From assembly GCA_965203175.1 (NCBI GenBank), contig OZ241867.1:4672001-4736000 (forward strand): a stretch of DNA of 64,000 nucleotides, given 5' to 3'. This document shows, piece after piece, positions 41,303 to 63,951 of the stretch. The notes under the pieces were generated by a model that was given only the letters and a program-made list of their open reading frames with translations, made no database searches and had not been told where the DNA came from. Position 1 is the first letter of the stretch. Every line of letters begins with the position of its first letter. The translations under genes were made by a program, and so were the position numbers. This stretch comes from Candidatus Latescibacterota bacterium. GTDB lineage: Bacteria > Latescibacterota > UBA2968 > UBA8231.

Positions 41303-43183
41303 ATGAAAGTAGCGCGCTTCCTTTCCTTATCCTGGATTTTTTCTTTGGCGCTCGGTTTTTGGGCCGGCCCAGCCTCGGGTCTGACCATTTACCGGTTCGG
41401 CGGCGAAGATCGGCCCAAACCCCCTGAGGAAGGCCAGGCCGGGGTGGACTTCAGACAATTGAGCTGGATGAATTTCGATGCCGAACCTCATGGGGAAACC
41501 ATTGACTTGGCCGTAGATAGTACCGGCATCCAGCCCCTCAAGCGCAATCCAGACTTCAACATAGCCCCCGGAATCGAAGAGAAAGGAGGGGCACATTTAA
41601 GGGCCAATATAAATAGAGAAGTGTGGGATGGTGATACGGGTACTTTCTGGCTGGCGGAAAAGTATCTGTGCGCCGATCACAGTATCAGATCCGGGGCCTG
41701 CACCGATGATTTCAGTCGGGCGGGCACGGCCAATATCTACCTAGGCGGTCTCTACAACATCGACCGGATTCGGGTGATATCCGGATTTACCGACCCGGGC
41801 CGAACCGTGGGCATCCTCCGCGTCCACCTCGGCCCGCGCCCCATAGTCAACTACGGCATCGTCCCGCCGAAATCGCCCTATATTGTCGAAGTGAGAGACA
41901 ACCGGGAGCAAATCCTCGACATTCCCATCCCATCGCACGAGGCAGTAGAGTTTGTCCAGGTGGCCTTGGCCGAGCACAACACGGACTGGGAAGTGAACGA
42001 GATCGAAGTCTACGCCAAGGGGTTCGTCAAACAGGCCACTTATATTTCCGATGTCATCGATTTCGAGCGGCCTATGGCTTGGGGAGACCTGCGCTGGTCC
42101 GGGGTTCAGGAGGCCGGAGCCCAAGTTCTCATCCGGACCCGCAGCGGCCTAGACGACGATGCGGACGTATTCTGGCGCTTCACCGGTCGCGGCAGCAAAG
42201 CCGAGGTGAGTCGCGCTAGCTATAGCGACCTCAAACTCAATGAACGGGCCGGCATCACCCACGACCTCGACCACTGGACCTTTTGGTCGGCCCCCTATGA
42301 CTTTGCCGACAGCAGCGGCACGCCGGTCGTGTCGACAAGCCCCAGACGCTACCTCCAGTTCAAGATCGACTTCCTGCCCCGTGAAAACGCCGGCGGCCGG
42401 GTGGGTTTCGTGGAGTTGCGCGCCTCCGAGCCGGTGGCGACTAACCTAGTGGGCGAGGTCTGGCCGGTCGAAGCAAAAGTAGGGCAGCAATCGTCCTTCA
42501 CCTATGCGTTGCGGCCGACGATTCACTCAGGCGATGTCGGCTTTGACCGGCTGGAAATCGAGACTTCCTCAATTATCAGCGCGGTGGAGGCGGTGCGCAT
42601 CGGCGACGCGCCCGTGGCCTTTACAGTAGAAGCCGAGGAGCCGCATCGGCTGGCGGTCAGTTTCCCGCGCCTCCAGGAGCAGGACTCGGGGACGCTGGTC
42701 GAGGTCGACTTCGCAGCACAGGTGCTGCGCTACGGAGCAATCTTTGCGGCGCAGGTGTCGGACAGCGACCAGCCTTTAGAGGTGCCGCAGGGGGTCAATC
42801 CGGGAGACGCTACGACGAAATACGAGGGCAACCGGGTGTCGGTGGCCACCGCCGCGCAGGAGCAGAGGCTGTTGCAGGTGCGAGTCGAGCCGACCATTTT
42901 TACGCCCAATGGCGATGGCCGCAACGACGAGATAGGCATCTTCTATCACATCTTGGAGATTACGGGCAGTGCGCAGGTAGCAGTGGAGGTGTGGGACTTG
43001 TCGGGTCGCCGGGTGCGGCGGGTGTATTCGGGCGCGGATGGAATCGGCGAGTACGAGCGGGCGTGGGATGGTCGGGACGAGGCCGGCGGTTTGGTGCCGC
43101 CAGGGATTTACCTGTATCGAGTTTCGGTCGATGCCGATCGGGAAAAGGTCGAAAAAACTGGCGTCTTGTATGCCGCGTACTGA
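41303..43183 (+). CDS. Exported discoidin-like + FlgD-Ig C-terminal domain protein (subtype I)
   Basis: Signal peptide; IYRFGGE; IRTRSG...WTFWSAPY...SPRRYLQF; FTPNGDGRND...WDGRD...PPGIY...AAY*. Confidence 0.8.
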   Translation: MKVARFLSLSWIFSLALGFWAGPASGLTIYRFGGEDRPKPPEEGQAGVDFRQLSWMNFDAEPHGETIDLAVDSTGIQPLKRNPDFNIAPGIEEKGGAHLRANINREVWDGDTGTFWLAEKYLCADHSIRSGACTDDFSRAGTANIYLGGLYNIDRIRVISGFTDPGRTVGILRVHLGPRPIVNYGIVPPKSPYIVEVRDNREQILDIPIPSHEAVEFVQVALAEHNTDWEVNEIEVYAKGFVKQATYISDVIDFERPMAWGDLRWSGVQEAGAQVLIRTRSGLDDDADVFWRFTGRGSKAEVSRASYSDLKLNERAGITHDLDHWTFWSAPYDFADSSGTPVVSTSPRRYLQFKIDFLPRENAGGRVGFVELRASEPVATNLVGEVWPVEAKVGQQSSFTYALRPTIHSGDVGFDRLEIETSSIISAVEAVRIGDAPVAFTVEAEEPHRLAVSFPRLQEQDSGTLVEVDFAAQVLRYGAIFAAQVSDSDQPLEVPQGVNPGDATTKYEGNRVSVATAAQEQRLLQVRVEPTIFTPNGDGRNDEIGIFYHILEITGSAQVAVEVWDLSGRRVRRVYSGADGIGEYERAWDGRDEAGGLVPPGIYLYRVSVDADREKVEKTGVLYAAY

Positions 43184-43213
43184 AAGGTACCTGCGAGGAA
43201 TTGCGTTAGACTC

Positions 43214-45781
43214 TCAGTACACACTGGCCACGACGGTAGCCACCGTAGATTCACCAATACCCTCCGCGTCCACCTCTGGCCCCACCCGGCAGATATACAA
43301 GCCAGGCGGCAACAGCACTCCATCCCGATCCCGGCCATCCCAACTCACCTCCTGCACACCAGCGGCGTGCGCCACGGACTGCGCTCGACGGTGCACTAGC
43401 GATCCGTCGAGCGCATAGACCTCCAATAGCAGCGAAGCCTGTCCCGGCATCTTAAATACGGGAAAGACAAATTTCACCGCATCGTTGATGCCGTCTCCGT
43501 TCGGCGTGAATGGATTTCCCAGTACCTCCATATCGCCTACCAGTCCACCAGCCACTGGCGTCAGCACGGTCAGGCCCTCGCCCGAGGCCGTCGCGTCCAC
43601 TCGCTGCCACACCACCTCCTCTTCCTCGCCCAGTCCCACCGAGACGAGAAAGGCATTGCTCGCCAGATAGAACGCACTCGAAAAGCGCAGCACAACTTGG
43701 GACTCTGGCTCCCGGACCACCTCGGGCAGGCGCACCCACAACGAGTCAACTCCGGTTTTTACCTCCAGTTCATCCACCCAGTATATCTGGCCGCCCCCCA
43801 CCTCCTGTTCGCTCTCTAGGCTCACGGTCACATCCACCAACTCTACCTCGGCGCTCGGAGGCACTTCAAAGAGTACTTGATCGAACCCCATACCCTCCGA
43901 GCCCGCCTCGTTGGGCGGGATCGTCAGCGACAACGCGAACGCTTCGCGGAGACCGCTCTGCTGGGCGCGGCGCGGCGCGATTTCGCCCAGAATCTGATGC
44001 ACCAGCGGATCCCTCAAGCCGATATTGAGGCGGCGCAACACCGCGGATTGGTTGGGATCGTCCGAGAGCAGAGCAGCCTCAATCATTATATAGCGCCGAG
44101 GGCTAGGCGAGGTGATGGCCGCTCCAGGTTGCTCGTAAAACTGACTCCACGGACTCCAATCCGCCTCGTCGGGCACAAAAGCCACTGTCGAATCCCCCCG
44201 CATAAACGACAGCGTCTTGCGATAGTCGGCCTCGGAGATTTCAACCCCCTGTTTGTTGAAGAAATGCTTGTCTTCGGTGAGTCGGTTTCCGGTCCGGGTG
44301 CGGATCTGCAGTTGGGTGCCGGGCGGCGTTTGTGCCTCCCAGGAGATGCTAGAAAGGATGCGGGGGGCATCTCCCAACTCGATCGCCGGCGTTTGCAGCG
44401 TGACCTGCGGCAGAAAACCAAAGCCATAGAGCAAAAGCTCCTTTACACCAGAACGGATCAACCCGGTAGTGACGACGCGATAGTCGAACCTAAAAAAGCG
44501 TCCCTTGATAGGAGAGAAGATATTGGCCTGCATGAAGGTGTTCGTTGGCAGCGACCCGGCGGGCGCAAGAGCCTCGCGGCCAAGCGTGACATCGTCTCTG
44601 CCGCGCGCAACCACGGAGGTAAAGATCTGGCTGCCATCGGGCGCCAGACTGCCATCCGAAAGATTGAGCACATAATTGGGGAATGTGGCACTACCATAGA
44701 CAATAAAGGCGCGGTCAACCCAGTACCAGGTGCCCAAGTCCAATAAGAGGTCCCGATCCCGGTTCTTGATCAACACAGTGAAATCGTCATCTCGACTACC
44801 TATGCCCTTGGTGGAAAATCCCGCTTCTGCACTCCAGACGGTGGTATAATCGCCGTCGACTGCATTGGAATGTCCGCCCGCTTCCCCAAATCCCTTGATC
44901 GACCCGCCGCGCTCCTTCCAGCCCAGACTAATATTCTCCCCCACCGTCCATACCTCCACCTCCACCAACCGAGGACGCTCCGAACGATAATAGCGAATCG
45001 GGCCCTTAAAACGATCCTCCCGTATCGCTTCATACTCCGCCTGAGATACCTCCCGCTCTACCCCCGTCGACTCCCGACGAAAATACAACGCATCCCCCCG
45101 ATCCACCTCCGCCAATCCCTCCCAACCAGAAGCGCTCACCTCCGCCCCACGACGCCCATCGCTGGCCGTGGCCACTATCTGAACATACTGGACTAAATCA
45201 CCACTCAAACCCGAATCCGCCGACTTGGCTGGACGCAAAGCATATTCGAATACCCGCTGCGTCTTGTTCAACCCCTCGCTGCGACCAGCCACCCGGTAGT
45301 TCAGACTCTGACTGCCCTGAAAGGCCTCATCGCCATTGGAGGTGAGCACCTTGAACTGCAAAAAAGGATCGCCTACCCCTTCGGCGACGAATTTCACCAC
45401 CACTTTCTCAGCCCACACCACCCGACCTAGATCCACCTCGACCCACCAGTCGCGCAGCGGCGCGTCCAGCGCTGGCTCCCAGTAGGTTTCCTCCAGACCG
45501 TCCATGAGCTGCGCGGCCCCGGCGAAATTGGTTCCCGCCCGTCGGATGCCCCCGGTCACGTCCTCGCGGCTGAAGGCCCCCGCGTTCAGCGCGGCATTGA
45601 TCTGCCGCTGCACAAAATGGGGGCGAACCCCTTCGGCGCTAAAATCCACACTGCCGGCGGGGAAATTCCACTCCGACCAGTCGCTCTCGCTGATGATTAA
45701 CTGGTTCGGCTCAAGGCGATAGCCCTGGGCCCAGACCGGGGCGCTGAGTAGCAGGGTATAGTGAATGAGGCGCAGGTTCAT
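43214..45781 (-). CDS. Exported double-discoidin-like + FlgD-Ig protein (subtype II)
   Basis: Signal peptide from MNLRLIH; two DG...DLG domains; IRTRTG...WSPWS...SPSPRRY; NPFTPNGDGIND...SVY*. Close paralog of 50533..53058. Confidence 0.82.
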   Translation of the reverse strand: MNLRLIHYTLLLSAPVWAQGYRLEPNQLIISESDWSEWNFPAGSVDFSAEGVRPHFVQRQINAALNAGAFSREDVTGGIRRAGTNFAGAAQLMDGLEETYWEPALDAPLRDWWVEVDLGRVVWAEKVVVKFVAEGVGDPFLQFKVLTSNGDEAFQGSQSLNYRVAGRSEGLNKTQRVFEYALRPAKSADSGLSGDLVQYVQIVATASDGRRGAEVSASGWEGLAEVDRGDALYFRRESTGVEREVSQAEYEAIREDRFKGPIRYYRSERPRLVEVEVWTVGENISLGWKERGGSIKGFGEAGGHSNAVDGDYTTVWSAEAGFSTKGIGSRDDDFTVLIKNRDRDLLLDLGTWYWVDRAFIVYGSATFPNYVLNLSDGSLAPDGSQIFTSVVARGRDDVTLGREALAPAGSLPTNTFMQANIFSPIKGRFFRFDYRVVTTGLIRSGVKELLLYGFGFLPQVTLQTPAIELGDAPRILSSISWEAQTPPGTQLQIRTRTGNRLTEDKHFFNKQGVEISEADYRKTLSFMRGDSTVAFVPDEADWSPWSQFYEQPGAAITSPSPRRYIMIEAALLSDDPNQSAVLRRLNIGLRDPLVHQILGEIAPRRAQQSGLREAFALSLTIPPNEAGSEGMGFDQVLFEVPPSAEVELVDVTVSLESEQEVGGGQIYWVDELEVKTGVDSLWVRLPEVVREPESQVVLRFSSAFYLASNAFLVSVGLGEEEEVVWQRVDATASGEGLTVLTPVAGGLVGDMEVLGNPFTPNGDGINDAVKFVFPVFKMPGQASLLLEVYALDGSLVHRRAQSVAHAAGVQEVSWDGRDRDGVLLPPGLYICRVGPEVDAEGIGESTVATVVASVY

Positions 45782-45786
45782 CGCAC

Positions 45787-48369
45787 TCAATCCTTGGCCT
45801 GCCGACCCTCGATCCTTTCGAGGAGCCAAAGCGCCTTAGTATGCGCCGGCACCTCGGCCAGCACCTCTCGCGCAGTCTGCTCGGCCAATTCTAGTTGTCC
45901 CGCCTGCAAGGCCTTGTTGCCGCGGTCGACGATCAGGTTGGCCAAGGCGTACAGATTGTGTTTGCGCATTTGTTCAATGCGGGCCATGCGCCTCCCATCG
46001 AGCGCAGCAGAGGCCGCCTTGCTCAAGGGTTTTTCGATCTCGAGCAAGGCACCCACGGTGCGCACCTCGATATCTTGATGCGGATCGAGTTCGTAGTCAA
46101 ATCTAGGCACGTTATCCACGAGAATCCGCCCACCGCGACTTAGACTGCGCAGATCCTCGGCCGACGCTAGGAAGCTCCCCAAGACGCTGTCGGACTCGTT
46201 GAGCCACCCCGTATTCGCGTCCAGTGGGTGCCGATAGTGCAGATCACGGCGAATTTCGGGCCTCCCCAGCCGCTCTTCAAGGGCTGGGATGTCGAGCGCA
46301 AAGGTATCCGCCCGTCGGCCAATCAAGACGAACTCTGGTCCATTGAACCAGAGCTGACTCTGCGGAAAGACGCTGATGAAGGTGGCGACGATGTCGAGCA
46401 CCTGCGGCGTGGAAAGCATCCGCACTGGCACGAATTGTGTCACTAGACCGCCGGGATCTAGCCGCTGTCTGAGGCGCTGGTAAAAATCTTTGGTGTAAAA
46501 GGAAACGACGCCCGGGCGAAAGAGTTGGCCCACTTCAATGCCGATCACATCGTAGCGGGCTTGACTGTGGCGGATGTAATCCCGGCCGTCTTCTGCCAAG
46601 GCGCGCACCCGAGGGTCGTCCAGCCAAGTCGCGCCAAAGTAGCGGCGGGCGAGATCGAAAACAGCTACTTCCACATCTAGGCAATCGAGCCTATGGACAT
46701 CCCACAACAGAAACCGCCCCGCAGCTTGGCCGGTACCCATACCCACTACGAGTACATCCGTCCCATTGCCATCGCCGCGCAACAGCATGGGCAGATGACC
46801 GGCAAAGGTCTGTTGGTTCTTCTTGTTTGAACCCTGCCACAAGCGGTCAATCCCCAGCAGCACCTTGTCTTCGAGTTGCACCACGGCAAGGCTGGCACCT
46901 TGACCCTCCACTACTTCGAGCAGGGTCCCCTCGGAAGACAGATGGTCGTGGGGAAGACTCGTTTTGAGCAGGGTCGCGGCGAGCCCCCACCCGATTACAC
47001 TGAAGGCGATCAGCAAGGCAGCAACTCGCCGACCTAGCTGGCGGCCCGCTCCTGCGGCAAAGGCCACGCAGCCCCCAACAATGGCCATGCCGGTGACCGT
47101 CCTCAGCGCGAGATCAAGCCCCAACCAAGAAAGCCCCCAAGCCATGATCATTGCGCTCGCAATGGAACCTGCGGTATTGATTGCCGTCAGCCGGCCGATC
47201 GTCCAACTCGCATCGGCTACGTTCCTCGACACCAGTCGGACCACGAGGGGAAACGAAGCGCCCGAAGCCAGCGCACCCGGCAGCAACATGGCACCGTGCA
47301 GGCCCATGAAGTGGTTGGCGCTTATCAGCTCTGGAGCGGCCTGCGCGAGCGCCGTCCAGATGTCCCGGGGCAGCTTCATCGCGACTAGGACGCTCAGTCC
47401 TGTGAAAGCCTGAAGGCTGCCGAAGACGACGACTGGATGCCGACTGCGGTCGCACAGCGGCGCAATGACGAGGCTGCCGATGCCGATGCCGAGCAGGATC
47501 ACGACGAGCGGCAGCGTGTACGCGTACACCGAACTGGTAATCATCAAGGGCAGGTAGCGCGCCCACAGAATCTCGATGGCCACGCCGACAAACCCGGTCA
47601 GGAAGAACAAGGGCAGCAGGACGGAGACCTGCTGCATTCTTCCCGCGTCTGTCGCTTGGTCTTCTCGGTTGGACTGCTCAGTAAGAGGAGCGGAGTGCGT
47701 TTGCCAACAGACCAGTAGCACGGCGACGCCACACAGGACATTGAGACCTGCCCCTAGGTAGATAGTCGCGGCGAGCCCCAGAACCGGCAGGGTCGCAAAG
47801 CCAGCTAAGGCAGCCCCAGCGGCAGCTCCCAGCGCATTGATGCCGTAGAGGCCACCCGCAGTGAATCCGAGGCTGCGGTGTCGGCGGATGATCGCCCTAG
47901 CGAGCAAGGGAACCGTCGTCCCCATCAGAACCGTGGGCACGATGATTACGGCTGCCACCAAGGCCAAGCGCGCCAGCGCGATCCATGGAGCCGAGCCATC
48001 GGCCCAGCGATAGAGCATTCCGTAGCCGTCGTCGGCCACGTCCAGCAGTGCGTTGCTCGCTAGGCCCAACACCGCGATGGCCAGTTCGACGATCCCATAG
48101 ATCCGCAACGGACGGTGCAGCGACGTCGACAGACGACCGGCCAAGGCACTGCCCATGGCCAGTCCGAGGAAAAAAACGGCGAGCACCGTTGCTAAGGCGA
48201 AGGTCGTGCTGCCAAAGAACAGTCCGGCCTTTCTGATCCAGCAGACTTCGTAGAACAGGCTCGCGGCCCCCGACAGGAAAAGGCAACTGAGCGCCGTTGC
48301 CATCTCGAATGGAGAAGGACCGGACGCCCCACTGGGGGAAGCAGGCTCTAGCGCGGCCACGTTGGGCAA
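45787..48369 (-). CDS. Fused membrane domain/spermidine synthase-like SAM-binding protein
   Basis: SGAASLFYEVCW, LYGINALG, VVGMGTG, EDGR, YDVI. The true start may be ATG 48303. Confidence 0.8.
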   Translation of the reverse strand: MPNVAALEPASPSGASGPSPFEMATALSCLFLSGAASLFYEVCWIRKAGLFFGSTTFALATVLAVFFLGLAMGSALAGRLSTSLHRPLRIYGIVELAIAVLGLASNALLDVADDGYGMLYRWADGSAPWIALARLALVAAVIIVPTVLMGTTVPLLARAIIRRHRSLGFTAGGLYGINALGAAAGAALAGFATLPVLGLAATIYLGAGLNVLCGVAVLLVCWQTHSAPLTEQSNREDQATDAGRMQQVSVLLPLFFLTGFVGVAIEILWARYLPLMITSSVYAYTLPLVVILLGIGIGSLVIAPLCDRSRHPVVVFGSLQAFTGLSVLVAMKLPRDIWTALAQAAPELISANHFMGLHGAMLLPGALASGASFPLVVRLVSRNVADASWTIGRLTAINTAGSIASAMIMAWGLSWLGLDLALRTVTGMAIVGGCVAFAAGAGRQLGRRVAALLIAFSVIGWGLAATLLKTSLPHDHLSSEGTLLEVVEGQGASLAVVQLEDKVLLGIDRLWQGSNKKNQQTFAGHLPMLLRGDGNGTDVLVVGMGTGQAAGRFLLWDVHRLDCLDVEVAVFDLARRYFGATWLDDPRVRALAEDGRDYIRHSQARYDVIGIEVGQLFRPGVVSFYTKDFYQRLRQRLDPGGLVTQFVPVRMLSTPQVLDIVATFISVFPQSQLWFNGPEFVLIGRRADTFALDIPALEERLGRPEIRRDLHYRHPLDANTGWLNESDSVLGSFLASAEDLRSLSRGGRILVDNVPRFDYELDPHQDIEVRTVGALLEIEKPLSKAASAALDGRRMARIEQMRKHNLYALANLIVDRGNKALQAGQLELAEQTAREVLAEVPAHTKALWLLERIEGRQAKD

Positions 48370-53058: not shown

Positions 53059-53083
53059 AAGATCTGCTCTACCCCCTTGCGAC

Positions 53084-55000: not shown

Positions 55001-55049
55001 GCCGCTACCTCCGGGTGTACCCCGTTCGAGGGCCGCGCACTGGCGCGCG

Positions 55050-57776
55050 TTAATCGAGTCCTGCGATTACAGTAATGAACTGCGATATGCCCGTAGAGGG
55101 ATTTTGTCCCTTTTCGTCTATGCGGTTGATTCTCACGCCCAACTGGGTGGTCAAAGCATATCCCAGATAAGCGCCTGTATTGGAGTACTGGACCGCCAGC
55201 ACCAACTCCTGGAAATCTTCTTGCAGACCTAGGGCTTTCGCATCTTCTTCGAATTGGTTGAATAGGGTGTACTCGACGCCCACCTGTACTTCCGAGCCGG
55301 TCAGTATAGGAGTCTGGCCAATGAGGAACAGGATCAGGGTGTCCTCTTTGCGCACCGGCTCGTTGCTCAGCAAGGGCGTTTCAAAACGCAGCTCGTTTTT
55401 GATCTTGGGAAAGAGCCGAAAGCGTCCCAACTGTTGCCGGTACTCTGCCTTGTTGATAAGGCCGAAAAACTGGTACTTGTCGCGAAAGTCCGCCTGTTCC
55501 TCTCGCTGATGCCAGACGTCGTATTTCACTTTGTTGACCAGTTTCAGCTTGGCGCTCGCGGTGTAGTCAAAACCGAGATAGGCGGAATTTATCCACGTAT
55601 TGGGAGCGGCCAGCAGATCTGGAACCCGCTGCAGATTCGCCTCGGTACCCGCCGGCTGCACCCACTGGACGACATCGTCCGGGATAGTGTCCTCGACCAG
55701 CTTGACCATGTCGAAGACCCGCAGCCGGCCTAACCCGGCTATATCCCGATCCCAAGTGAACATCCCGTAGCTGCTGTTTTCCTCTCGATCGCTGGCCAGC
55801 GTGCGCTCCTGCTTGCGGCCAACCGTCACCCGCATCCCAGGCATGATGTGAGCGCCTACATAGATATTGCCTCCGCGGCGGTCGCGGTCGTAGGGGAAAT
55901 CGGGCTCTTCGTCGTTTTCAAAGCGATCGATCCAGAAATTGTTGTTCATGTCCACTCCGAAGAGGAACTCGGGGCGATCGACGCTGTAGCGCAAGAAAGG
56001 CTCTTCGTAATCGGGAATGTAATTCGGCCGGAAGTCGGTGTCGTTCTGGTTGAAATCGGAGATGAAATCGTTGTTTTCGTCCCAGCCCGGGAAGATTTCC
56101 CGGTCCGGTCCCGCTTGATTGATGCGCTGCCAGTCGGGCGTGCGATCCTGATCGTCGTTGTCCTCGACGAATTCGTAGAAAAACCGGCGTTCGTTGGTGT
56201 AGTCGATGTCTCCGTTCGCTTCCGTGAGCAAGCCGGTAGTGCCGTAGTCGTAATCCATGCTGTAGAGTTCGCCAAAAAGGAAGAAGGCATAGCCCCGCCG
56301 CGCCAGATTGATCATCCAAGCACTAGCCTCGTCGGAGTCCATGAGGTGTTCGGTGAATTTGCGATTGGGGTATTTGCGGAAGCGCCGGCTGCGATCGAAC
56401 TCGGCGTACAGGTCAAAGCCCAGCAGATCGTTTACTTCGATGGTGCCGCCGAAGATATCGTTGCCCGTGGGCAAGCCGTAATCAAAGCGCACCAATTGCA
56501 GATTGGAGCCGTCTTTTACATTGCCCGCAGCCCGCGCCTGAGTCAGGAAGACCGGCTGGCGCTCGGGCAGATTGGTCTGGCGATCCGACCCCATCTCAAT
56601 GCGGTAGTCGTTGGCCACGGCCAATTCGATGGTGACCTTGCGGATGGTGGACAGATCCGGGCCGTTGTATGAGCGGTTCTCGCTAGTGAAATCATAAGTC
56701 AACACGATCTGTTCGCTGCCGTCGGCGGCGAGAAAGCCCCGCCGGCGAAACCCCCCGTTGATGAGGGCGCTGAAGCCGATCTCGCTGCCGCGCACCGTCT
56801 CTTTGCGAATTTCGATCTTCTCTTCGCCATCGTCTGTTACAACCACGACCTCGGTCTCGGCCTCGATGATGATATCGTGGGAAAACAGCGCGGCCCCCCC
56901 TTCGCGATCCGTGGGTGAATCATCGCTCAGACGGACGAAGATCTGGCTGATGGGTTCGAGGTTCTGCCCCACGGTCAGGGCTCCGCTTATGGGGTCTCCC
57001 TCAAGGCTCTCTAGCAGGGTCTGGGAATGATGAGCGTTGACATACGTGGCACCCACCTTGACAAAATCGCCGATCTGACTCGTTCCCCTAAAGCCGAGGA
57101 GATTGGTGCTATTGGTGCCTTCCACCGTTATAGTGCTTGCTCTACCCGGCGAACTGATGCGCGACATCAACACCGTGATCGCATGCTTGTCGGACTGGAG
57201 ATCCATCTGCACCCCGTCGAAAGCCGGCTTGGAAAAAGTCATGGGCGTCAGCGTGGTGCGGATTTGTTCGCCAATAGTCAGGGCCGTGTGGTACTGGCCG
57301 CTGCGGTCCGAGGAGATGACCAGCCGATTGAACCACGCTCCAAACCGCGGATCTTTGAAAATGGCGCTGCCGAACTGCTGAGGCTGCTGCTGGCGCCAAT
57401 CGTAGATGAGCCATCCTTTAGTGATGAAAGACCCATACAGGTCGTAAAAATAATCCCCCTCTATGTCGGGGCTCAAATAACGCTGATAGTGGTCCCGGGC
57501 ATAATTGGTGTACTCCCATTGCTTCCAGCGATAGAGTAGGAAGAGTTCCTGCGGCACGTACCAGCGCCGCACGGCCGGGTCCAAGGCGTCAAAGAGCACG
57601 CCCGAACCCACTGGTTCGTACGACACCTCGCCGCCGCGCTGCAGGCCCAATCTGTGGCCATAATCGAGTCCTTGGGCTACGGCTCCTTCGGGCACTGCGA
57701 CAATACTCAGCAGTAGTGCGATACCCGCAGCTGCGAGGAAAAGCTGCCGGCCCGTACGCGTACTCCATCTGGTCAT
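55050..57776 (-). CDS. Exported 908-aa protein, putative outer-membrane beta-barrel
   Basis: Signal peptide; many amphipathic aromatic strands separated by turns in the C-terminal third; acidic DxNxD-like loops. Confidence 0.6.
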   Translation of the reverse strand: MTRWSTRTGRQLFLAAAGIALLLSIVAVPEGAVAQGLDYGHRLGLQRGGEVSYEPVGSGVLFDALDPAVRRWYVPQELFLLYRWKQWEYTNYARDHYQRYLSPDIEGDYFYDLYGSFITKGWLIYDWRQQQPQQFGSAIFKDPRFGAWFNRLVISSDRSGQYHTALTIGEQIRTTLTPMTFSKPAFDGVQMDLQSDKHAITVLMSRISSPGRASTITVEGTNSTNLLGFRGTSQIGDFVKVGATYVNAHHSQTLLESLEGDPISGALTVGQNLEPISQIFVRLSDDSPTDREGGAALFSHDIIIEAETEVVVVTDDGEEKIEIRKETVRGSEIGFSALINGGFRRRGFLAADGSEQIVLTYDFTSENRSYNGPDLSTIRKVTIELAVANDYRIEMGSDRQTNLPERQPVFLTQARAAGNVKDGSNLQLVRFDYGLPTGNDIFGGTIEVNDLLGFDLYAEFDRSRRFRKYPNRKFTEHLMDSDEASAWMINLARRGYAFFLFGELYSMDYDYGTTGLLTEANGDIDYTNERRFFYEFVEDNDDQDRTPDWQRINQAGPDREIFPGWDENNDFISDFNQNDTDFRPNYIPDYEEPFLRYSVDRPEFLFGVDMNNNFWIDRFENDEEPDFPYDRDRRGGNIYVGAHIMPGMRVTVGRKQERTLASDREENSSYGMFTWDRDIAGLGRLRVFDMVKLVEDTIPDDVVQWVQPAGTEANLQRVPDLLAAPNTWINSAYLGFDYTASAKLKLVNKVKYDVWHQREEQADFRDKYQFFGLINKAEYRQQLGRFRLFPKIKNELRFETPLLSNEPVRKEDTLILFLIGQTPILTGSEVQVGVEYTLFNQFEEDAKALGLQEDFQELVLAVQYSNTGAYLGYALTTQLGVRINRIDEKGQNPSTGISQFITVIAGLD

Positions 57777-57794
57777 ATGACCCCCCTGTTGATG

Positions 57795-59540
57795 CTAATA
57801 GATGACTGCCACAGTACTGCTGCGGCTCACCGTGCCGCTGTCCGTTACCACTTTCACCTGCAAGACGTAAAGTCCCGGCGGCAGATAGCGGCCTTGGTCA
57901 TTCTGGCCGCTCCATTGCACCAGATGACGCCCACTCTGGTTTTTTTTCACCGGCAATTCCGCCACTTGCCTTCCGGCTAGGTCGTAGACCCGCAAAGAAA
58001 CCGGAACATCGTTGATCAGGTGCAGTAGATCGTAGCTGATGGTCGTCTGATCGTTGATCCCGTCTCCATTGGGCGTAAAAGGGTTGGGGGTCACGGTCAC
58101 CCGGTGGACGACTGGGTCCTGAGCCAGCGGCACCCGCACGCTCAGATCGTCGCCGAGCAGCGATCCCGCCGCATCTCCTTCTTCAATTTCCTGGGGCAAG
58201 CCGTCCGACTGACTGTCGCGCAGGCGCCCGCTAAAAACCGTCTCGTAGCGCAAAATCGCGGCGTCGAAAACCATCCGCAGATCGTGGTTGCCGCTCTGGT
58301 GGGGAAAGGTCACCCTCAAGCCGCTCTCGTGGGACTCCGCGACGAAATCCTCCACCTCCAAGTCGTCGAGGTGCAGCGACCGAACCGTATGCACCGGAAC
58401 AGAGCTATCGATCTCCAAGCGGTCGAAACCTCGGCTACCGACCACTTGGACGGCATAAGTAAAGACCGTATCCACCCCAACCGGCACATTCTGGGGCCAT
58501 ATTTCCCCGACTATGGACTCCGCTACTGGAGCGGAAAATTCAAACGCCAGTGAATCCACTGCGGTACCGTCCTCCAGCCCATCGCTTTCAAAGTCCAAGC
58601 GGAACTGGAAGTACTGCCTTGGTGCCGGCGAAAGAATCGGGGTATTTCCGCTCAGGTAGGGAGCGGACCAAGGGCTCCAAGCGTCCGGTTCATCTGTAGG
58701 AGACGGACTGCTGCCGCTGCGAGTGCGGATGAAAAACCGGGACTTTTCGGGATGTCCCACGGCCTCGGCCGCCCAGTGCAGTTGGCCCCAGAGCGTGGGC
58801 TGATTAAAATCGAAGACTTGGGACAAATAGTCGGCCTCGGGGACAAAACCCCGCCCGAAGACTTCAATCTCGTCAATTTCCCAATTGGATCTGTCCGTGG
58901 CCTGCAACAGGAGATAGCGCACATAGCGCAAGGGAAACTGCACGTTTACAGTATCCTGGCTATTGCCGGTCTGCTGATCTATCTGGACGAAGAGGTTTTT
59001 ACTCGGCAGCCCGTCGATAGACTCGGCTACGAATTCAGCTCCGAAAATACCGTCGTTGATGAAGAGCGCATAGCCCCTCATGAAGTCATCCGGAAAAGCG
59101 GTGCGCGGGAAAAAGCGGATGCGATTCACCCCGAAGCGAGCGCCTAGGTCGAAGATCACGAGAATGCCCGAAGCCGTTATGTTCTTGACTTCAAAAGCCG
59201 TCTGAGGATCTCCGTCCACCATGCTCTCTAGGTTTGCCGCCAGCGTCTCCTTGTCGCCCCGCAAGACGGCCTGGGCATTTGGCGAAACCACTCTGCCACC
59301 ACGCGCTAAAGTCCCCGAGGCGATGTTGGTGGTAGTATCGATAAAACTGGGCAGGATCCACCCAGGGCGGCTGGTAAAATCAATGATCGGCGCGGCCGCG
59401 GCACGCTCCTCCCAGCTCTCCCCACCGGCACTGCCGCCGACCACTCGGATATCTGCAGCCTGCGCTGCCGCCGCCAGCGCCAACCAGAGCGACACTAGCA
59501 GGGGCCGGTAAACCCGCGAGATTGAACAATCTCTCCTCAT
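57795..59540 (-). CDS. Exported discoidin-like + FlgD-Ig protein (short subtype I)
   Basis: Signal peptide; MVDGD...FDLG...RIRFFPR; IRTRSG...WSPWSAPY...SPAPRQYFQF; NPFTPNGDGIND...VIY*. Confidence 0.8.
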   Translation of the reverse strand: MRRDCSISRVYRPLLVSLWLALAAAAQAADIRVVGGSAGGESWEERAAAAPIIDFTSRPGWILPSFIDTTTNIASGTLARGGRVVSPNAQAVLRGDKETLAANLESMVDGDPQTAFEVKNITASGILVIFDLGARFGVNRIRFFPRTAFPDDFMRGYALFINDGIFGAEFVAESIDGLPSKNLFVQIDQQTGNSQDTVNVQFPLRYVRYLLLQATDRSNWEIDEIEVFGRGFVPEADYLSQVFDFNQPTLWGQLHWAAEAVGHPEKSRFFIRTRSGSSPSPTDEPDAWSPWSAPYLSGNTPILSPAPRQYFQFRLDFESDGLEDGTAVDSLAFEFSAPVAESIVGEIWPQNVPVGVDTVFTYAVQVVGSRGFDRLEIDSSVPVHTVRSLHLDDLEVEDFVAESHESGLRVTFPHQSGNHDLRMVFDAAILRYETVFSGRLRDSQSDGLPQEIEEGDAAGSLLGDDLSVRVPLAQDPVVHRVTVTPNPFTPNGDGINDQTTISYDLLHLINDVPVSLRVYDLAGRQVAELPVKKNQSGRHLVQWSGQNDQGRYLPPGLYVLQVKVVTDSGTVSRSSTVAVIY

Positions 59541-59582
59541 CTACAACTCCTGCCCCTTTCGGTGCCATGCTACCACGTATAC

Positions 59583-59625
59583 AAAAATGCCGCCATGCCA
59601 GAAGAAACTCTCGGCATGGCGGCAT
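59583..59625 (-). terminator. Rho-independent terminator after the CBM9-like gene
   Basis: 13-bp stem atgccgccatgcc / ggcatggcggcat followed by a T run on the minus strand. Confidence 0.7.
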
Positions 59626-59664
59626 GGCGATCATGTGCAGCCAAACCTCTACTGCGCAGTGCAA

Positions 59665-60579
59665 CTACTCGGCAAAGGTGGCCTTTATATGGCCCCAGGT
59701 CTTTTCCTCCACCGCTGTGCCCGCTCGGACTTGCGAGGCCCAGTCGATGTCGGGATCAACCGGACTCAGATAAAAGTCGCTGAGGAAATCGGCGTGGTGA
59801 CAGCTATTGGTGTCGCCACTCAAGGTCCAGTAGCCATCGTAGCCGCCACCAGTGTCCGAATCCAAGACCGTGAAGTTGAAACCGAAGATCTCATTTTCTT
59901 TGAGAATGTGCTGGACGCTGTTCGGTACGTCGGTCCAGCGCAGATCGTTCCACGGAGTATAGGCATACTCGGCATAGAAGTTGCCGGGCTCCCCTGGTCC
60001 GTTGGTACAGGAGAAGGCTGCGTCGCCAAACGGTGGCAAGGCATGCTCGTAGGTCTTGTGCCAAGCATAGCGTCCGTTCGGGCGCAGACCGTACCCCTGA
60101 GCCTGCTGGCCATGCAGAATGTCTTTCTCTTCCTGGGTCAGGGAGTCGTCGTTCCAGGAGTTGAACTGACCGCCGCTGTGGTCGCCGTCGATCTGGATCT
60201 CTAGGAAATCGCGGGCATTGCCGGTACAGCCACTGCCTTTGGCGTTTTCCCAACTGTTATCGCCCACCCAGACGGCGTCATCCCAGCGATCTTCCATGAT
60301 GTAGACTTTGTTGGTCTCCGGGCTCCAACCGACGAAGGCCCGCAGGGCCAGATCCGCGGCATCGCGCTGAGTGCCCAGTCCGGTCACCGTCTCGGTCAAA
60401 TCCTCGTGGGTGATCAAATAGGGATCAGTAACCACGTCCCAATCGGACAGATCACTGTCGATGATGGGAAGGTGTCCGGTGGGAAATTGAACAGCCGGCC
60501 TCACCACCCCTTCGGGCAAATGAGCCCAGCAAGTAGTGGAGACTAAAATAGCTCCAGCAATAAGGGCAACTTTCTTCAT
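59665..60579 (-). CDS. Exported CBM9/DOMON-like protein with C-terminal TAVExxTWGxIK tail
   Basis: Signal peptide MKKVAL...WA; PIIDSDLSDW...EIQIDGDHSGG; ends GTAVEEKTWGHIKATFAE. Confidence 0.7.
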   Translation of the reverse strand: MKKVALIAGAILVSTTCWAHLPEGVVRPAVQFPTGHLPIIDSDLSDWDVVTDPYLITHEDLTETVTGLGTQRDAADLALRAFVGWSPETNKVYIMEDRWDDAVWVGDNSWENAKGSGCTGNARDFLEIQIDGDHSGGQFNSWNDDSLTQEEKDILHGQQAQGYGLRPNGRYAWHKTYEHALPPFGDAAFSCTNGPGEPGNFYAEYAYTPWNDLRWTDVPNSVQHILKENEIFGFNFTVLDSDTGGGYDGYWTLSGDTNSCHHADFLSDFYLSPVDPDIDWASQVRAGTAVEEKTWGHIKATFAE

Positions 60580-60869
60580 GGTTTTAAACTCCGAGGTTGA
60601 GGTCAATGCGAAACGTCTGGGCTTAGGCCCAGGTACTAACCTGATCTACTCCGATTTACTCCGACGAAAAAGGGACACCTCCTTTCTGTCATAAGATATT
60701 AATTTTTTAAAGACTTATCACACCTATACCGGAAGTATTCCAGTCCACCGGTGTATTCGACGTGATGTAAAGATATGGAGTTAGAATACAAAATCCGACT
60801 GGTTAAAATCAAGTTTTTTTTCCCGTGCTCCCGCCCAATCAGCCAGTCCACGTCTAATTTCGCATTGGC

Positions 60870-61970
60870 TTACCAAGGAATGGTGTCGTACAGGAAATCC
60901 CCCGCTTCCCTGTGAGCTCGACTATTGGGGTGAAAATCCGTCGGGTGGACCCAGTAATCCCGTTCGTCCTTGCCGGCAAATTGAGCGAGGAGATCGACGT
61001 AGTGTATCCCCTCGTGCTGGGCAAGTGCCCCGAGCGTTTCGTGCACCTCTGTTAGGGGATAGGCTTCGAGCTGGTAGAACACGGGAAAGACGACCAAAGA
61101 GAATTTAATACCCTTAGCGGCGCAGGATTTCTTCATCTTGCTGAGCAACTGCCGGGTCAGGATCCAACCTAGATTATCTTTGTAGAGTTGTCGGTACCAC
61201 GCAACAGTATCTCGGGAAAGCTGCTGTCTCTTCAAGCGCGCGGCAAACCAATGCAGCGTATAGCTATTCCTCCCCGCCAGAAATCGGGCTGCCCCCACAT
61301 TGGACCGCAAGTGCATAAAATCGGCCAGTTCCTTTTCCATCTCGAGTAGACGCCCGCTCCTAAATGGATCGTTCAGGGTAAACGAGTACACGACGCGCTC
61401 GACCCGAGCAAAGTACTCGACATAGCGCTCCATGGTCTTGGCGATCCGCTTGATATTCATACCCGGCACACAGGCATTGAAAAGCTGATAGCGCTCCGCA
61501 GGGCGCTCTCGATTCAAGCGAATCTCCAAGATATGCGAAAAACGTTCCGCGACCCGGACCCCCTGCCCAAAGCCAAAGGAGTCGCCGATTACTAGGACGA
61601 TTTTGGCATTTTGCCCGTCGAACTCAGCCATCGGCCGCTCGCGCAATTGCTCTTCGTTGCGGCGCATCTCAATGGCATTGGGCACTTTGAATGGCGCTAG
61701 ATTGGCGAGGGTGGAATCATTGTTGGCATTGCCTAAATAGGTCAACTGCCCGTACGGATGTGCCCGCCGCAGATCCCAGTCAGGGGTGCCCGCAAAGTGC
61801 TCGTCGTAGCACCACAGATCGAGGTTAGGATCGGCCGTTTCGTAATAGACCAAGGGGTAGATCTGCTCGGACCGAGCAAAGAGCCAAAAAGAGACTTCAA
61901 TGGCGAGCGCGGTAACGGCCAAACTGGCAACTACCAACAGCAGCTTACCGCCAATCTCGATTCGATCCAT
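60870..61970 (-). CDS. SGNH/GDSL hydrolase family protein
   Basis: N-terminal transmembrane segment; IGDSFGFGQGV, LND, DFHPN. Confidence 0.85.
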   Translation of the reverse strand: MDRIEIGGKLLLVVASLAVTALAIEVSFWLFARSEQIYPLVYYETADPNLDLWCYDEHFAGTPDWDLRRAHPYGQLTYLGNANNDSTLANLAPFKVPNAIEMRRNEEQLRERPMAEFDGQNAKIVLVIGDSFGFGQGVRVAERFSHILEIRLNRERPAERYQLFNACVPGMNIKRIAKTMERYVEYFARVERVVYSFTLNDPFRSGRLLEMEKELADFMHLRSNVGAARFLAGRNSYTLHWFAARLKRQQLSRDTVAWYRQLYKDNLGWILTRQLLSKMKKSCAAKGIKFSLVVFPVFYQLEAYPLTEVHETLGALAQHEGIHYVDLLAQFAGKDERDYWVHPTDFHPNSRAHREAGDFLYDTIPW

Positions 61971-62028
61971 TTTTAACGATTAAACCGATGGGACAATCGG
62001 GTCGAGTTGTATCTATTCCCCCACCAGC

Positions 62029-63951
62029 CTAGCCGCGCCCTTCCGCGGTCAATTCCCGACCCAACTTTTCGATGTTATCATCGAAATAGCGCACCTCATC
62101 TTCGTACGAGGCGCGCAGGTCTTTCAACCAACGCCCGAACAATTCTCGCTCGCTCTCCTTGCGGATATTAGCTCGTATCTGCCTCTCGCGTTCTTCGTAG
62201 GAACGCGCTTCTGATTCCCGCCGACTGAGAATTTTGGCAATAGAATAGGAAGGCCCAACCTGAATGGGACCGATGAGCGAACCGATTTCCCTCTCAAAGG
62301 CCGCTGTGACCAAATCCCCAAAGCGCGCCGTCTCGTACCAGTAGAGATGGTAGTGCCCCTCTGTTTCGCTGGCGCCCGGTCGCAGACTGCGGGTGCTGGC
62401 CTGTTCCCGCATGATGTACTCTTCGGCCAACTCTTTTGGACTCGATGCCGCAGCTATTTCCTCTAGGACCGTCTCTACTCCGCCCCGCTCGTCCAACCGC
62501 TGGCAGAGCCATTCCAGAACCTCGAGATCGTCGTCCATTTTCCGCAACGCCAGTACCTCCTCTGTCAGGTCCCGCCCGGCCTGCTGCTTTTGTTTCATCT
62601 TGGTGAGCAGGTCGATCAAAGGAGAAACCCGACGGAAGATGCCGCGAATCTCGGCGAGCAGCGCCTCGGCCTCGGCCTCGCTGGCCAACTGGATCTCCAC
62701 CACGTTCACCTCCGAGGCGGTCCGGTACTGGTCCTTGGTTTCTTCGTAGTAATCGAGTACCTCTTGTTCGCTTATCTCCTCGTCTGTCGCAGTAGCGATC
62801 TGGCGCATGGTCACAATCAGTACTTCTTCTTCCTTGCGCTTGACCCATTCTTCGAGTTCGCGGTCGAGCTCCAACTTATCCGCCTCCATCCACATGAGTT
62901 GCGGGATTACTACGTCGCGCTCCAAAAAATGGGCCACTCTCGCACTGTCGGATACGTTTCTGCCTTGGCGAATGAACGGAGATTGCAAGATGGCTTCTCC
63001 GAGCGCGATCTGTCCCCCCGCATACTTGAAGAGGGGCATCTCGGCGGCACCTTCTGGAATTTGGAACGTCTTTTTGCCGGTCTCCGGATCCTCCCGACCA
63101 CTGTGCAATATTTCCATCAGGGTGCCCAAGCCGTGCGGATCCGGCGTCAATTGGAACTGCTCGGCCAGCGAATCTGCATACGCCTTTCTGCGGGCGTCCA
63201 ACCATTCTTCGGACAGTGTCTTAAAAAGAAAATCCCTAGTTTGCTCGTAGGTCCCTTGCAACTCATTTAGGACCTTGAAAATTTCGTAACCTTGGGGGAC
63301 GGCTATGGGCTCTGATATTTCCCCAACTTTGAGACTGAAGAGTACATCGCGCACCAGTGGGACGGCGTGGAAGCGGCTGTAATACAAAGGTTTCACGCCT
63401 CCGAGCGAAGCCGTGCGCGAATGAGTCGAAAATTCGCGCGCTACTTCCTCAAAAGGAGTACCGGCCCGCAGAGCCGCCATCGCCTCCTCGGCGCGCTCCT
63501 GGGTGGGTACGACGATATGGGCAATTTTGATCCAGCGCTCCCAGTTCTGCTCGGCAAACACGCGCCGCATTTCCGCCTCGGTAATGGAGACCTGGTCCTG
63601 GACAGCGCGCTGCTCGATCTCTCGTATCAGCCGCCGTCGCAGAGCCGTCGCCACCTCGCTGACAAACGCCGGACTCCGGTCTAATTTGCCGGCGCGCGCT
63701 TCTCGGAGAATGAGCGTCCGATCGATCAGCGACTGCAAGTATTCGCGGACTTTTGCACCGCCTTCCTGTTCGCTCTTGGCCCACTCGGCCACATTGTCAA
63801 TCAGGTAACGTATATCCCGATCCGTGATCACCTCTTCGCCTACCTGGGCCAGCGGCAATGCCTCCTTTTGGGCGCTCGGCTCCTGCTCCCCGCAAGCGAC
63901 GAGCACCGCAATGCCCAGTGCACTCCACATCGACAACTTTCGCAAGTACAT
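62029..63951 (-). CDS. PpiC-type peptidyl-prolyl isomerase lipoprotein (SurA/PrsA-like, two parvulin domains)
   Basis: Lipobox LVAC; IAHIVV...FEEVAREFS...GG...GEISEPI...GYEIFKV; second degenerate parvulin domain. Confidence 0.85.
   Translation of the reverse strand: MYLRKLSMWSALGIAVLVACGEQEPSAQKEALPLAQVGEEVITDRDIRYLIDNVAEWAKSEQEGGAKVREYLQSLIDRTLILREARAGKLDRSPAFVSEVATALRRRLIREIEQRAVQDQVSITEAEMRRVFAEQNWERWIKIAHIVVPTQERAEEAMAALRAGTPFEEVAREFSTHSRTASLGGVKPLYYSRFHAVPLVRDVLFSLKVGEISEPIAVPQGYEIFKVLNELQGTYEQTRDFLFKTLSEEWLDARRKAYADSLAEQFQLTPDPHGLGTLMEILHSGREDPETGKKTFQIPEGAAEMPLFKYAGGQIALGEAILQSPFIRQGRNVSDSARVAHFLERDVVIPQLMWMEADKLELDRELEEWVKRKEEEVLIVTMRQIATATDEEISEQEVLDYYEETKDQYRTASEVNVVEIQLASEAEAEALLAEIRGIFRRVSPLIDLLTKMKQKQQAGRDLTEEVLALRKMDDDLEVLEWLCQRLDERGGVETVLEEIAAASSPKELAEEYIMREQASTRSLRPGASETEGHYHLYWYETARFGDLVTAAFEREIGSLIGPIQVGPSYSIAKILSRRESEARSYEERERQIRANIRKESERELFGRWLKDLRASYEDEVRYFDDNIEKLGRELTAEGRG

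Follow-up and report, generated by a model that had tools for sequence, protein, structure and literature searches.

A multiplied gene cassette of Tyr-tailed exported proteins and a very large predicted outer-membrane barrel in a Latescibacterota genome

The locus and its genes

The stretch analysed here, which we call the window, comprises the 64,000 nucleotides (nt) from position 4,672,001 to 4,736,000 of OZ241867.1, a single 6.58-Mb contig of an uncultured marine Candidatus Latescibacterota bacterium (assembly GCA_965203175.1), and the system in question is a cluster of genes at window positions 41303-63951. The cluster encodes five paralogous exported proteins with an FTPNGDGxND-bearing C-terminal domain (C proteins, of classes C1, C2 and C3), a 908-residue barrel protein (B), a DUF6785 permease (D), a fused membrane protein (S), a CBM9-like protein (U), an SGNH hydrolase and a peptidyl-prolyl isomerase (PPIase) lipoprotein (P). 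A first-pass annotation of the same DNA had named all of these but S, and had proposed a lineage-specific module, built on the five C paralogs, in which tailed binding proteins dock on a dedicated outer-membrane barrel and feed a DUF6785 importer in the manner of a SusCD system. We find that the window locus is one of about forty copies of a cassette in this genome, the core of which consists of one or two B genes, usually one each of C1, C2 and C3, and U and P. The cassette probably forms a cell-surface capture device, with DUF6785 as an optional neighbour and not as a dedicated part. The features of the locus (sizes in amino acids, aa) are as follows, in the order in which the minus strand is read.

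62029-63951, minus strand: P, SurA/PrsA-type parvulin PPIase lipoprotein, 640 aa (Rotamase_2 5e-19; LVAC lipobox)
60870-61970, minus strand: SGNH/GDSL hydrolase, 366 aa, with an N-terminal membrane anchor (Lipase_GDSL_2 35.5 bits vs cut-off 32.9)
59665-60606, minus strand: U, exported CBM9-like protein, 313 aa, with a C-terminal [ST]WGx[IVLM]Kxx[FYW] motif
57795-59540, minus strand: C1 paralog, 581 aa, with a leader, a CBM32/discoidin-like N-domain, the conserved middle scaffold and the Tyr-ending tail (Pfam CHU_C 35.1 bits, FlgD_ig 37.1 bits)
57795-58091, minus strand: C-terminal domain of C1, residues ~484-581, carrying FTPNGDGxND and ending in hydrophobic-x-hydrophobic-[AVIL]-Tyr
55050-57776, minus strand: B, 908 aa, a very large outer-membrane beta-barrel in the model, without a described family
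55887-56186, minus strand: Asp/Asn-rich acidic block within B (residues 531-630), where conservation in the B family is highest
53084-55000, minus strand: C2 paralog, 638 aa (Pfam CHU_C 35.2 bits)
50533-53100, minus strand: C3 paralog, 855 aa, with an additional N-terminal discoidin-type domain (F5_F8_type_C 29.0 bits vs cut-off 28.2)
48370-50364, minus strand: D, DUF6785/DUF6784 inner-membrane permease of predicted OPT/Yellow-Stripe fold, 664 aa (Pfam 1e-122 and 8e-31)
45787-48369, minus strand: S, fused MFS/spermidine-synthase-like membrane protein, 860 aa (NF037959 102.5 bits vs 40; Spermine_synth 2.7e-10)
43214-45829, minus strand: second C3 paralog, 871 aa, 83% identical to the protein of 50533-53100
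41303-43183, plus strand: second C2 paralog, 626 aa (Pfam CHU_C 35.2 bits)

From 63951 down to 43214 the minus strand thus reads P, SGNH, U, C1, B, C2, C3, D, S, C3, or P-U-C-B-C-C-D in the shorthand used below, and the 626-aa C2 paralog on the plus strand is convergent with the remaining genes. The locus accordingly holds one C1, two C2 and two C3 genes. Intergenic gaps are short or negative throughout: the C1 gene ends 18 nt upstream of B, the 638-aa and 855-aa C genes overlap by 17 nt, D abuts S (the gene missing from the first-pass list, between D and the 871-aa paralog), and S in turn abuts the 871-aa C3 gene. Every open reading frame (ORF) named earlier is present at its coordinates, and the ORF check, Pfam and NCBIfam matches and alignment show the five C paralogs, B, D and the genes around them to be real. 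Within 43000-62500 the numbers of promoter-like sites (4, vs 7.0 ± 2.5 in shuffled sequence) and terminator-like sites (23, vs 19.2 ± 4.7) were no better than chance.

Census of the cassette in the genome

The census was made by phmmer of the window proteins against all ORFs of the genome of at least 150 aa, and returned 213 C-like proteins, 62 B, 56 D, 40 P, 32 U and 8 S. When B genes less than 12 kb apart were merged and neighbours were counted within 10 kb, 40 B loci were obtained, 21 with one B gene, 16 with two and three with three. Every one of the 40 loci has a C gene within this distance, while P is present at 33, U at 24 and D at 21; all three C classes occur at 24 of the loci, and exactly one Tyr-ending C protein of each class at 20. 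Immediately upstream, 43 of the 62 B genes have a C gene and 14 have another B gene, and the gene strings U-C-C-C-B-B-P-D, P-U-C-B-C-C-D, P-C-B-x-C-C-B-U and C-C-C-B-P recur. Taken together, the Tyr-ending C genes, B, U and P account for 9.9% of the genome, or 11.6% with D added.

The distances among paralogs of U and of P correlate with those of B (Mantel r 0.63 and 0.54, respectively, each with 0/2000 permutations), and those of D do so at r 0.34 (20/2000 permutations). These correlations indicate that the loci were duplicated as blocks to which D was attached less firmly; they speak for a shared history of the cassette genes and not for physical contact.

The C proteins and their Tyr-ending tail

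The five window C proteins (626, 871, 855, 638 and 581 aa) can be aligned over their full length with 60 invariant columns, among them F-x-P-N-G-D-G-x-N-D, W..G, P-G-x-Y and the terminal Tyr, and each starts with a hydrophobic leader, so that the leader, scaffold, tail and last residue said earlier to be common to them are indeed shared. Identity to the 626-aa protein is 25-37%, and the close match between the 871-aa and 855-aa C3 proteins points to a recent duplication. The nearest paralogs of the 626-aa C2 protein lie elsewhere in the genome, at 3868775-3886511. The discoidin-like domains ascribed to all five were recovered by Pfam at or above cut-off solely in the two long proteins, with F5_F8_type_C in the 855-aa protein and F5_F8_type_C_2 (27.9 vs 27.8) in the 871-aa one; the 581-aa C1 protein reached only 16.4 bits, below cut-off, and the 626-aa and 638-aa proteins gave no match. 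In the tail, CHU_C (PF13585, cut-off 27) is above cut-off in three of the five proteins at 35.1-35.2 bits and FlgD_ig in four, and the type-A secretion model TIGR04183 is below cut-off in all five (best 20.8 vs 23). A profile of 21 C1 paralogs searched against the PDB matched the tail to the FlgD Ig domain 3osv at 3e-9 and to the PorU C-terminal domain 6za2 at E 0.02, and the N-domain weakly to the CBM32 structure 4a41 (E 0.005).

Across the genome, 169 of the 213 C-like proteins end in Tyr and make up the true family, to which the five window paralogs belong; they are not a local invention. When each protein was assigned to its best-scoring window query, the 169 divided into three old classes with 57 C1, 46 C2 and 66 C3 members. 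The terminal pattern hydrophobic-x-hydrophobic-[AVIL]-Tyr was found in 161 genes of a 4515-gene set, and all 161 belong to the C family. Among the 44 C-like proteins that do not end in Tyr, 39 carry the type-A tail (TIGR04183) instead. The two groups also differ in location, with 121/169 Tyr-ending C proteins within 10 kb of a B gene against 6/44 of the other-tailed ones, 15% of the genome being that close. The Tyr-ending tail is therefore confined to the C family and tracks the barrel. In a nearest-neighbour test the nearest tail was of the same class in 150/169 cases (~57 expected by chance) and from the same locus in 28/169, which indicates that the tails evolved with their class rather than with their locus; concerted evolution of the tails within a locus was rejected on these counts.

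The B barrel

B matched no Pfam or NCBIfam family at E <= 0.01, and so neither PF11751 nor TIGR03519, and a profile search of the PDB returned no sequence relative. Its AF2 (AlphaFold2) model, built on 21 paralogs, has a pLDDT of 71, a pTM of 0.70 and ~30 long antiparallel strands. Foldseek matched this model to 117 PDB chains at E <= 0.001; all of the 48 matches listed are membrane beta-barrels and include SlpA, MtrB, LptD, ushers, TonB-dependent receptors and porins, with low TM-scores of 0.18-0.27. VIA, an aligner independent of Foldseek, gave the same picture, since its 50 matches shown were all membrane beta-barrels, mostly of bacterial outer membranes and a few mitochondrial. The barrel fold that the first-pass annotation had guessed for the 908-aa protein is supported by the model and both aligners, and we regard B, as modelled, as a very large outer-membrane beta-barrel assigned to no named family. 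Its best structural match with either program is SlpA, the barrel of the Deinococcus S-layer deinoxanthin-binding complex (7zgx, 8ae1; Foldseek E 3e-9; VIA top match 7zgx, Z 15.3 over 443 residues), which like B is an unusually large outer-membrane barrel. However, identity is 8-10%, which amounts to no sequence similarity, the TM-scores are 0.18-0.21, and B has no SLH or coiled-coil part; the match reflects the size class of the predicted barrel and not kinship.

Conservation among B paralogs is highest in the Asp/Asn-rich residues 531-630, with a mean pairwise identity of 64.5% and many invariant D and N columns, followed by the N-terminal region 36-120 at 53.7% and the barrel segments at 35-46%; both of the conserved parts are of low confidence in the model. 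The paralogs end in [ST]F[IV]T[IV][YF]AGL followed by 0-3 residues, a motif different from the terminal Phe of 13/30 TonB-dependent receptors of the genome. A complex prediction of B (36-908) with the C1 tail (470-581), from an alignment of 21 rows each, scored 0.01 against a mark of 0.32, a result that speaks neither for nor against binding. Among 1.84 billion representatives, the B profile matched 1138 clusters at 50% identity with E <= 0.001, of which 413 had E <= 1e-30.

Two further observations concern the B family within this genome. In tandem B pairs (e.g. genome 3860811-3866479 and 5382948-5388571) the upstream copy scores 850-925 bits to the window B and the downstream copy 635-740 bits, so that such a pair represents two old B subfamilies in fixed order. 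Members of a divergent B-like subfamily, at 130-215 bits to the window B, stand two or three in a row and are accompanied by fewer C genes, at genome 5640422-5650904, 6156224-6164891, 6511322-6519563 and 2792466-2802400.

Spread across the phylum and RNA-library cover

For comparison we used 151 genomes of the Latescibacterota phylum, including the window's family (n=63) and two sister families (n=30 and n=19); the sampled genomes are interrelated, so that the counts are a description of the sample rather than a set of independent tests. B was found in 93/151 genomes, in all 63 of the window's family (5-86 candidates each) and in 0/30 and 0/19 of the sister families. The C scaffold, searched without the tail, was found in 94/151 genomes, again in 63/63 of the window's family, and in 4/30 and 1/19 of the sister families, all of the latter weak at ~1e-11. 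B and C share almost one phyletic pattern across the phylum. DUF6785 is spread differently: it was found in 137/151 genomes, in 63/63, 30/30 and 19/19 of the three families, and it was not found in one family (0/13 genomes) that has weak B-like matches. SprA was found in 146/151 genomes, with 63/63, 30/30 and 19/19 in the same families.

Gene order is conserved as well. Of 80 loci taken from other assemblies around relatives of B, 70 have a C gene as the next gene upstream of B, and in three of the ten exceptions the sequence on that side is shorter than 2.5 kb; C genes in any position are present at 77 of the 80, U at 64, P at 52 and D at 38. The order P-U-C-B-C-C-D is kept in the four closest complete genomes. 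The lineage-specific and conserved nature claimed for the module in the first-pass annotation is borne out by this spread and synteny. Assemblies labelled Gemmatimonadetes, Planctomycetota and Handelsmanbacteria, with 17-32 B copies each, were considered as a sign of spread to other phyla and rejected, their contigs coinciding with genomes of the window's own family. The label conflict concerns five assemblies (labelled Gemmatimonadaceae, Handelsmanbacteria, Gemmatimonas phototrophica, Gemmatimonadetes and Planctomycetota) whose contigs are common to Latescibacterota family genomes; the submitters' labels look wrong or outdated, and the 'Gemmatimonadota' labels in the ESM Atlas may have arisen in the same way.

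All or part of the stretch is present in twenty public runs from ten studies. Six of these runs are recorded as RNA libraries, of which four are sponge metagenomes. Contigs of RNA libraries from four runs of three studies were mapped to 44001-64000. At 90-99% identity these contigs extend over C3, C2, B, C1 and U, and they bridge the C2/C3 junction (52505-53230), the B/C2 junction (54651-55130) and the C1/U junction (58522-59823, 58830-59588 and 59318-60066), with little or no cover over S and D (46669-49336) and over SGNH and PpiC (61343-64000), gaps on which we base no conclusion. Contig depth, which is a poor measure, is uneven, at 79-151 over U and near zero over SGNH and the PPIase. We take the cover as a modest sign that the core cassette genes are expressed in related strains.

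The D permease and the S fusion

D matches DUF6785 at 410.6 bits (1e-122) and DUF6784 at 106.7 bits (8e-31), both above the Pfam cut-offs, with no other Pfam family returned at E <= 0.01 and no match in a PDB sequence profile search. Its AF2 model (pLDDT 84, pTM 0.87) has a sole strong, full-length Foldseek match, the barley Yellow-Stripe transporter YS1 (7wst/7wsr; E 4e-7, TM 0.62/0.68, 683 aligned columns). The whole-length match of the model suggests that D is a secondary importer of the OPT fold, although identity to YS1 is 12-13% and Pfam places D in DUF6785/DUF6784 only. The importer part of the earlier proposal is supported by the fold; a dedication of D to the cassette is not supported. 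The 56 phmmer matches reduce to 54 copies of D after removal of overlapping frames, and 31 of these lie away from the B loci; the 23/54 within 10 kb of B are ~2.8-fold enriched over the 15% of the genome that lies so close. Because DUF6785 is also multiplied in families without B and C, we treat it as an optional neighbour, and DUF6785 genes found next to B should not be read as dedicated partners. The window itself has a second DUF6785/DUF6784 gene, at 14028-15995, whose neighbours include an esterase-like gene (12031-13983) and an ABC sugar transporter (17827-20832); neither barrel genes nor C genes lie close to it. Elsewhere in the genome a 1548-aa protein with seven paralogs (5777281-5781927) overlaps the start of a DUF6785 gene at 5781924-5783834.

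S, well above the NF037959 cut-off, has eight paralogs in the genome by the census, five of them within 10 kb of a B gene. A second fused membrane protein of the MFS/spermidine-synthase type, of 1072 aa, is encoded in the window at 30656-33874.

U, P and other neighbours

The CBM9 likeness given to U in the first-pass annotation holds for relatives of the window protein and not for the protein itself, which has no CBM9 match; 4/21 aligned paralogs, out of 32 in the genome by phmmer, match CBM9_1 (best 2.5e-7). Against the PDB, the U profile gave a single chance-level match (E 0.26). U proteins mostly have a signal-peptidase-I leader, and their [ST]WGx[IVLM]Kxx[FYW] motif occurs in 34 genes of the genome, 21 for U and 13 for other small exported-looking proteins, always within 4 residues of the protein end and never internally. 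The motif may be an unrecognised sorting or docking signal.

P was correctly described as a PpiC lipoprotein, with Rotamase_2 at 69.7 bits and Rotamase at 51.5 bits, and SurA_N_3 below cut-off. Its 40 phmmer matches leave 39 copies after overlap removal, 33 of which lie within 10 kb of a B gene; a lipobox-like motif, LVAC in the window protein, is present in 21/39. The SGNH hydrolase is likewise genuine by its Lipase_GDSL_2 score, but it has only one distant paralog (E 1e-6) and is a local passenger rather than a regular member of the cassette.

A sample of 20 of the 86 accessory genes within the loci showed tetratricopeptide (TPR) proteins, PMT_2+TPR glycosyltransferase-like proteins and FG-GAP/ASPIC proteins as the recurrent types. 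The PMT_2+TPR proteins, which resemble GT-C protein mannosyltransferases, are encoded directly downstream of B in the P-C-B-x-C-C-B-U loci (e.g. genome 6101239-6103491, 1966798-1969077 and 2535184-2537403), and a query with this family gave about 70-78 matches, in part via the TPR portion. This neighbourhood hints that cassette proteins are glycosylated. FG-GAP + UnbV_ASPIC (CRTAC1-like) proteins have ~60 paralogs, several of them inside or beside cassettes (e.g. genome 3458641-3460332 and 77779-79398).

The remainder of the window is devoted to sugar catabolism, with an FGGY kinase, GFO/IDH/MocA oxidoreductases, a BNR/FAD fusion, an esterase, the ABC sugar transporter, an enolase-superfamily enzyme and the second DUF6785 gene. 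Also present are an 811-aa exported protein (37069-39504) with a weak discoidin match and two paralogs only, and a DUF4838 protein (33901-35793) just upstream of the cassette.

Secretion context

Components of a type IX secretion system (T9SS) are encoded in the genome: SprA at 490 bits, PorU at 632 bits and, adjoining PorU, a PorV-like gene at 147 bits, below its cut-off of 250. Type-A tails (TIGR04183) are above cut-off in 75 proteins. No PorP/SprF was found, since PF11751 gave no match and TIGR03519 only a 21-bit sub-threshold match on the PorV-like gene; the control genomes were also silent. Plug-domain matches number 32, of which 31 are above cut-off and none lies within the window. The statement in the first-pass annotation that a TonB-dependent receptor is missing is therefore true of the window and not of the genome, and with 31 such receptors present the cassette is not a replacement for them.

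In Bacteroidota, type-A cargo depends on PorV as its general shuttle and type-B cargo on a cognate barrel of the PorP/SprF family (PMC12618676; PMC9143113). SprB and PG1035, known type-B cargo proteins, are held at the cell surface by PorP-like barrels (PMC9143113), and the type-B C-terminal domains of F. johnsoniae have five conserved motifs, A-E (PMC12618676). By analogy, the split between Tyr-ending and type-A tails in the present genome seems to mirror the type-B/type-A split of Bacteroidota.

Discussion

The interpretation that we favour, with a probability of about one half, is that the cassette encodes surface lectin complexes anchored on a cognate giant barrel, in the way that type-B cargo is anchored on PorP/SprF. 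In such a pathway Sec would export the C proteins, and P, as the periplasmic chaperone of the locus, would keep them unfolded or folded; they would then cross the outer membrane through the SprA translocon of the genome and be held on the surface by the co-encoded B, acting in the role of PorP/SprF, perhaps with one C subunit of each class per barrel or barrel pair. Three lectin subunits on a barrel would make up a hetero-oligomeric complex at the cell surface that binds polymers, most likely glycans. It can be further speculated that the wide barrel admits captured fragments to the periplasm, where an importer encoded nearby would take them up; at the window locus this importer would be the OPT-fold DUF6785 permease packed against the S fusion and the C3 gene.

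The likeness to T9SS type-B systems extends to Sec-exported cargo with a ~90-residue C-terminal Ig-like domain carrying FTPNGDGxND, to a tail class distinct from the type-A tails of the same genome, and to the linkage of the cargo gene with an outer-membrane barrel gene in the presence of SprA, PorU and a PorV-like gene. There are also differences. PorP/SprF barrels have ~300 residues. The cassette's partner B has ~900 residues, with ~30 strands in the model, and belongs to an unrelated family; each barrel is accompanied by three cargo classes, and each locus by a chaperone of its own and a CBM9-like protein. The cargo genes number 169 here, against 12 type-B substrates in F. johnsoniae, and the host lies outside Bacteroidota. 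The tail, moreover, ends in a family-specific Tyr motif.

Several of our findings count against the favoured interpretation. Of the models suggested in the first-pass annotation as a check on the tail, CHU_C and FlgD_ig matched as described above, but TIGR04131, the type-B model, stayed below cut-off in all five C proteins (best 25.5 vs 35), as did CHU_C in the two long ones (18.9 and 20.4 bits vs 27), so that type-B membership appears marginal by sequence. Of the 169 Tyr-ending C genes, 48 have no B gene within 10 kb. Neither a Plug domain nor a TonB box nor a TonB_dep_Rec match is seen in B, which leaves gated import unexplained. The search for T9SS core genes, which yielded SprA, PorU and the PorV-like gene, failed to find GldL and GldM, and the motor of a canonical T9SS is unconfirmed; since the control genomes were silent for both models, these negatives, like that for PorP/SprF, are weak. 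DUF6785 is equally multiplied in the sister families without B, with 21-68 candidates per genome among the rows listed. The core cassette includes no glycoside hydrolase; together with the types of accessory genes sampled, this suits a surface coat or an adhesive role no less than nutrient capture. Finally, the RNA evidence consists of assembled contigs, which prove neither transcription nor strand.

The hydrolase-free core, the accessory types, the plugless B and the independence of D make an adhesion or host-interaction coat a serious rival, if one that we can hold only tentatively. The C classes and B would then be variable surface lectins that bind host or particle glycans without uptake, and importers would lie nearby by crowding. 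This would agree with the sponge metagenomes among the RNA libraries that hold the locus, with a cassette that lacks a degradative enzyme and has TPR, GT-C-like and FG-GAP/ASPIC proteins as sampled accessories, with the independence of D from B and C across families and its presence near only 21/40 loci, and with the surface location, on PorP-like barrels, of the type-B cargo SprB and PG1035 (PMC9143113). It is less easily squared with the ~2.8-fold enrichment of D near B or with the partly common history of the two (Mantel r 0.34). Moreover, D abuts S and S abuts the C3 gene in the window, the rest of which is filled by sugar-catabolic genes, and lake and other non-sponge assemblies also hold the cassette.

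A bolder extension of the favoured interpretation is possible, though we would not count on it: the giant barrels may represent a new class of outer-membrane machine, on which three lectin subunits are docked by their Tyr tails and through which polymers are captured and admitted without TonB. This would be a second, independent invention of the principle of the polysaccharide utilisation locus (PUL), with about forty substrate-specific sets per genome in a widespread uncultured phylum. In Bacteroidota, PULs consist of SusC/SusD with surface glycan-binding proteins and are present as dozens of paralogous loci that take up about a tenth of the DNA. The cassette is alike in its dozens of paralogous loci occupying about a tenth of the genome, in pairing an outer-membrane barrel with surface binding proteins that have carbohydrate-binding-type domains, and in that the loci are often near importers and sugar-catabolic genes. 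Unlike SusC, however, B has none of the TonB-linked features, the C proteins are neither SusD-like nor lipoproteins, the core has no glycoside hydrolase or regulator, and the surface proteins carry secretion tails.

It seems unlikely that B is instead a secretion or assembly pore for its own C proteins, working in the manner of an usher or a two-partner system independently of T9SS, with the Tyr strand as targeting signal and P as dedicated chaperone. In its favour, B exceeds PorP/SprF by far in size, ushers, LptD and TpsB-type barrels are among its fold matches, a SurA/PrsA-like chaperone accompanies B at 33/40 loci, the terminal hydrophobic-x-hydrophobic-x-Tyr recalls the outer-membrane beta-signal (compare the terminal Phe of 13/30 TonB-dependent receptors here), and GldL, GldM and PorP were not found in the genome. 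Yet the tail is a domain of the CHU_C/FlgD-Ig type, as in T9SS cargo, SprA, PorU and a PorV-like gene are present, SprA was found in all 63 genomes of the window's family, every one of which holds B, and the usher matches are weak and generic (TM 0.18-0.27). A strict SusCD-like system, in which B and C obligatorily feed the DUF6785 importer, is the most doubtful alternative and is already weakened by the phyletic data: the importer fold predicted for D, its co-oriented, tight packing in the window locus and the P-U-C-B-C-C-D order of the four nearest complete genomes would suit it, but D is not within 10 kb of 19/40 B loci, 31/54 of its copies are elsewhere, it occurs in 49/49 genomes of the two families where B was not found, and it was not found (0/13) in the family with weak B-like matches.

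We found no paper describing the cassette in a search that left supplements and subscription journals outside, none mentioning DUF6785, and none linking Latescibacterota or Latescibacter* to type IX secretion or T9SS. In a term search of a paper on sponge Latescibacterota (PMC12993501), 'type IX', 'secretion', 'outer membrane', 'FlgD', 'paralog' and 'TonB' were not found, and a 2015 analysis of the phylum speaks of non-specific porins and inner-membrane transporters (PMC4454575). New here are the whole-genome census, the exclusive Tyr tail with its contrast to type A, the three classes, one each at 20/40 loci, the test for block duplication, the finding that D separates phyletically from B and C, the corrected cross-phylum labels and the RNA-library cover.

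About a tenth of a 6.6-Mb genome is thus devoted to one unstudied envelope cassette, which is present in 63/63 sampled genomes of the host family. If B anchors or admits lectin-bound material, the logic of type-B cargo and cognate barrel would be extended beyond Bacteroidota, to a completely different barrel family, and a first functional context would be given to ~1,100 sequence clusters of a barrel that has no Pfam, NCBIfam or PDB relative. The cassette would then also show how Latescibacterota, including those associated with sponges, meet their substrates or hosts.

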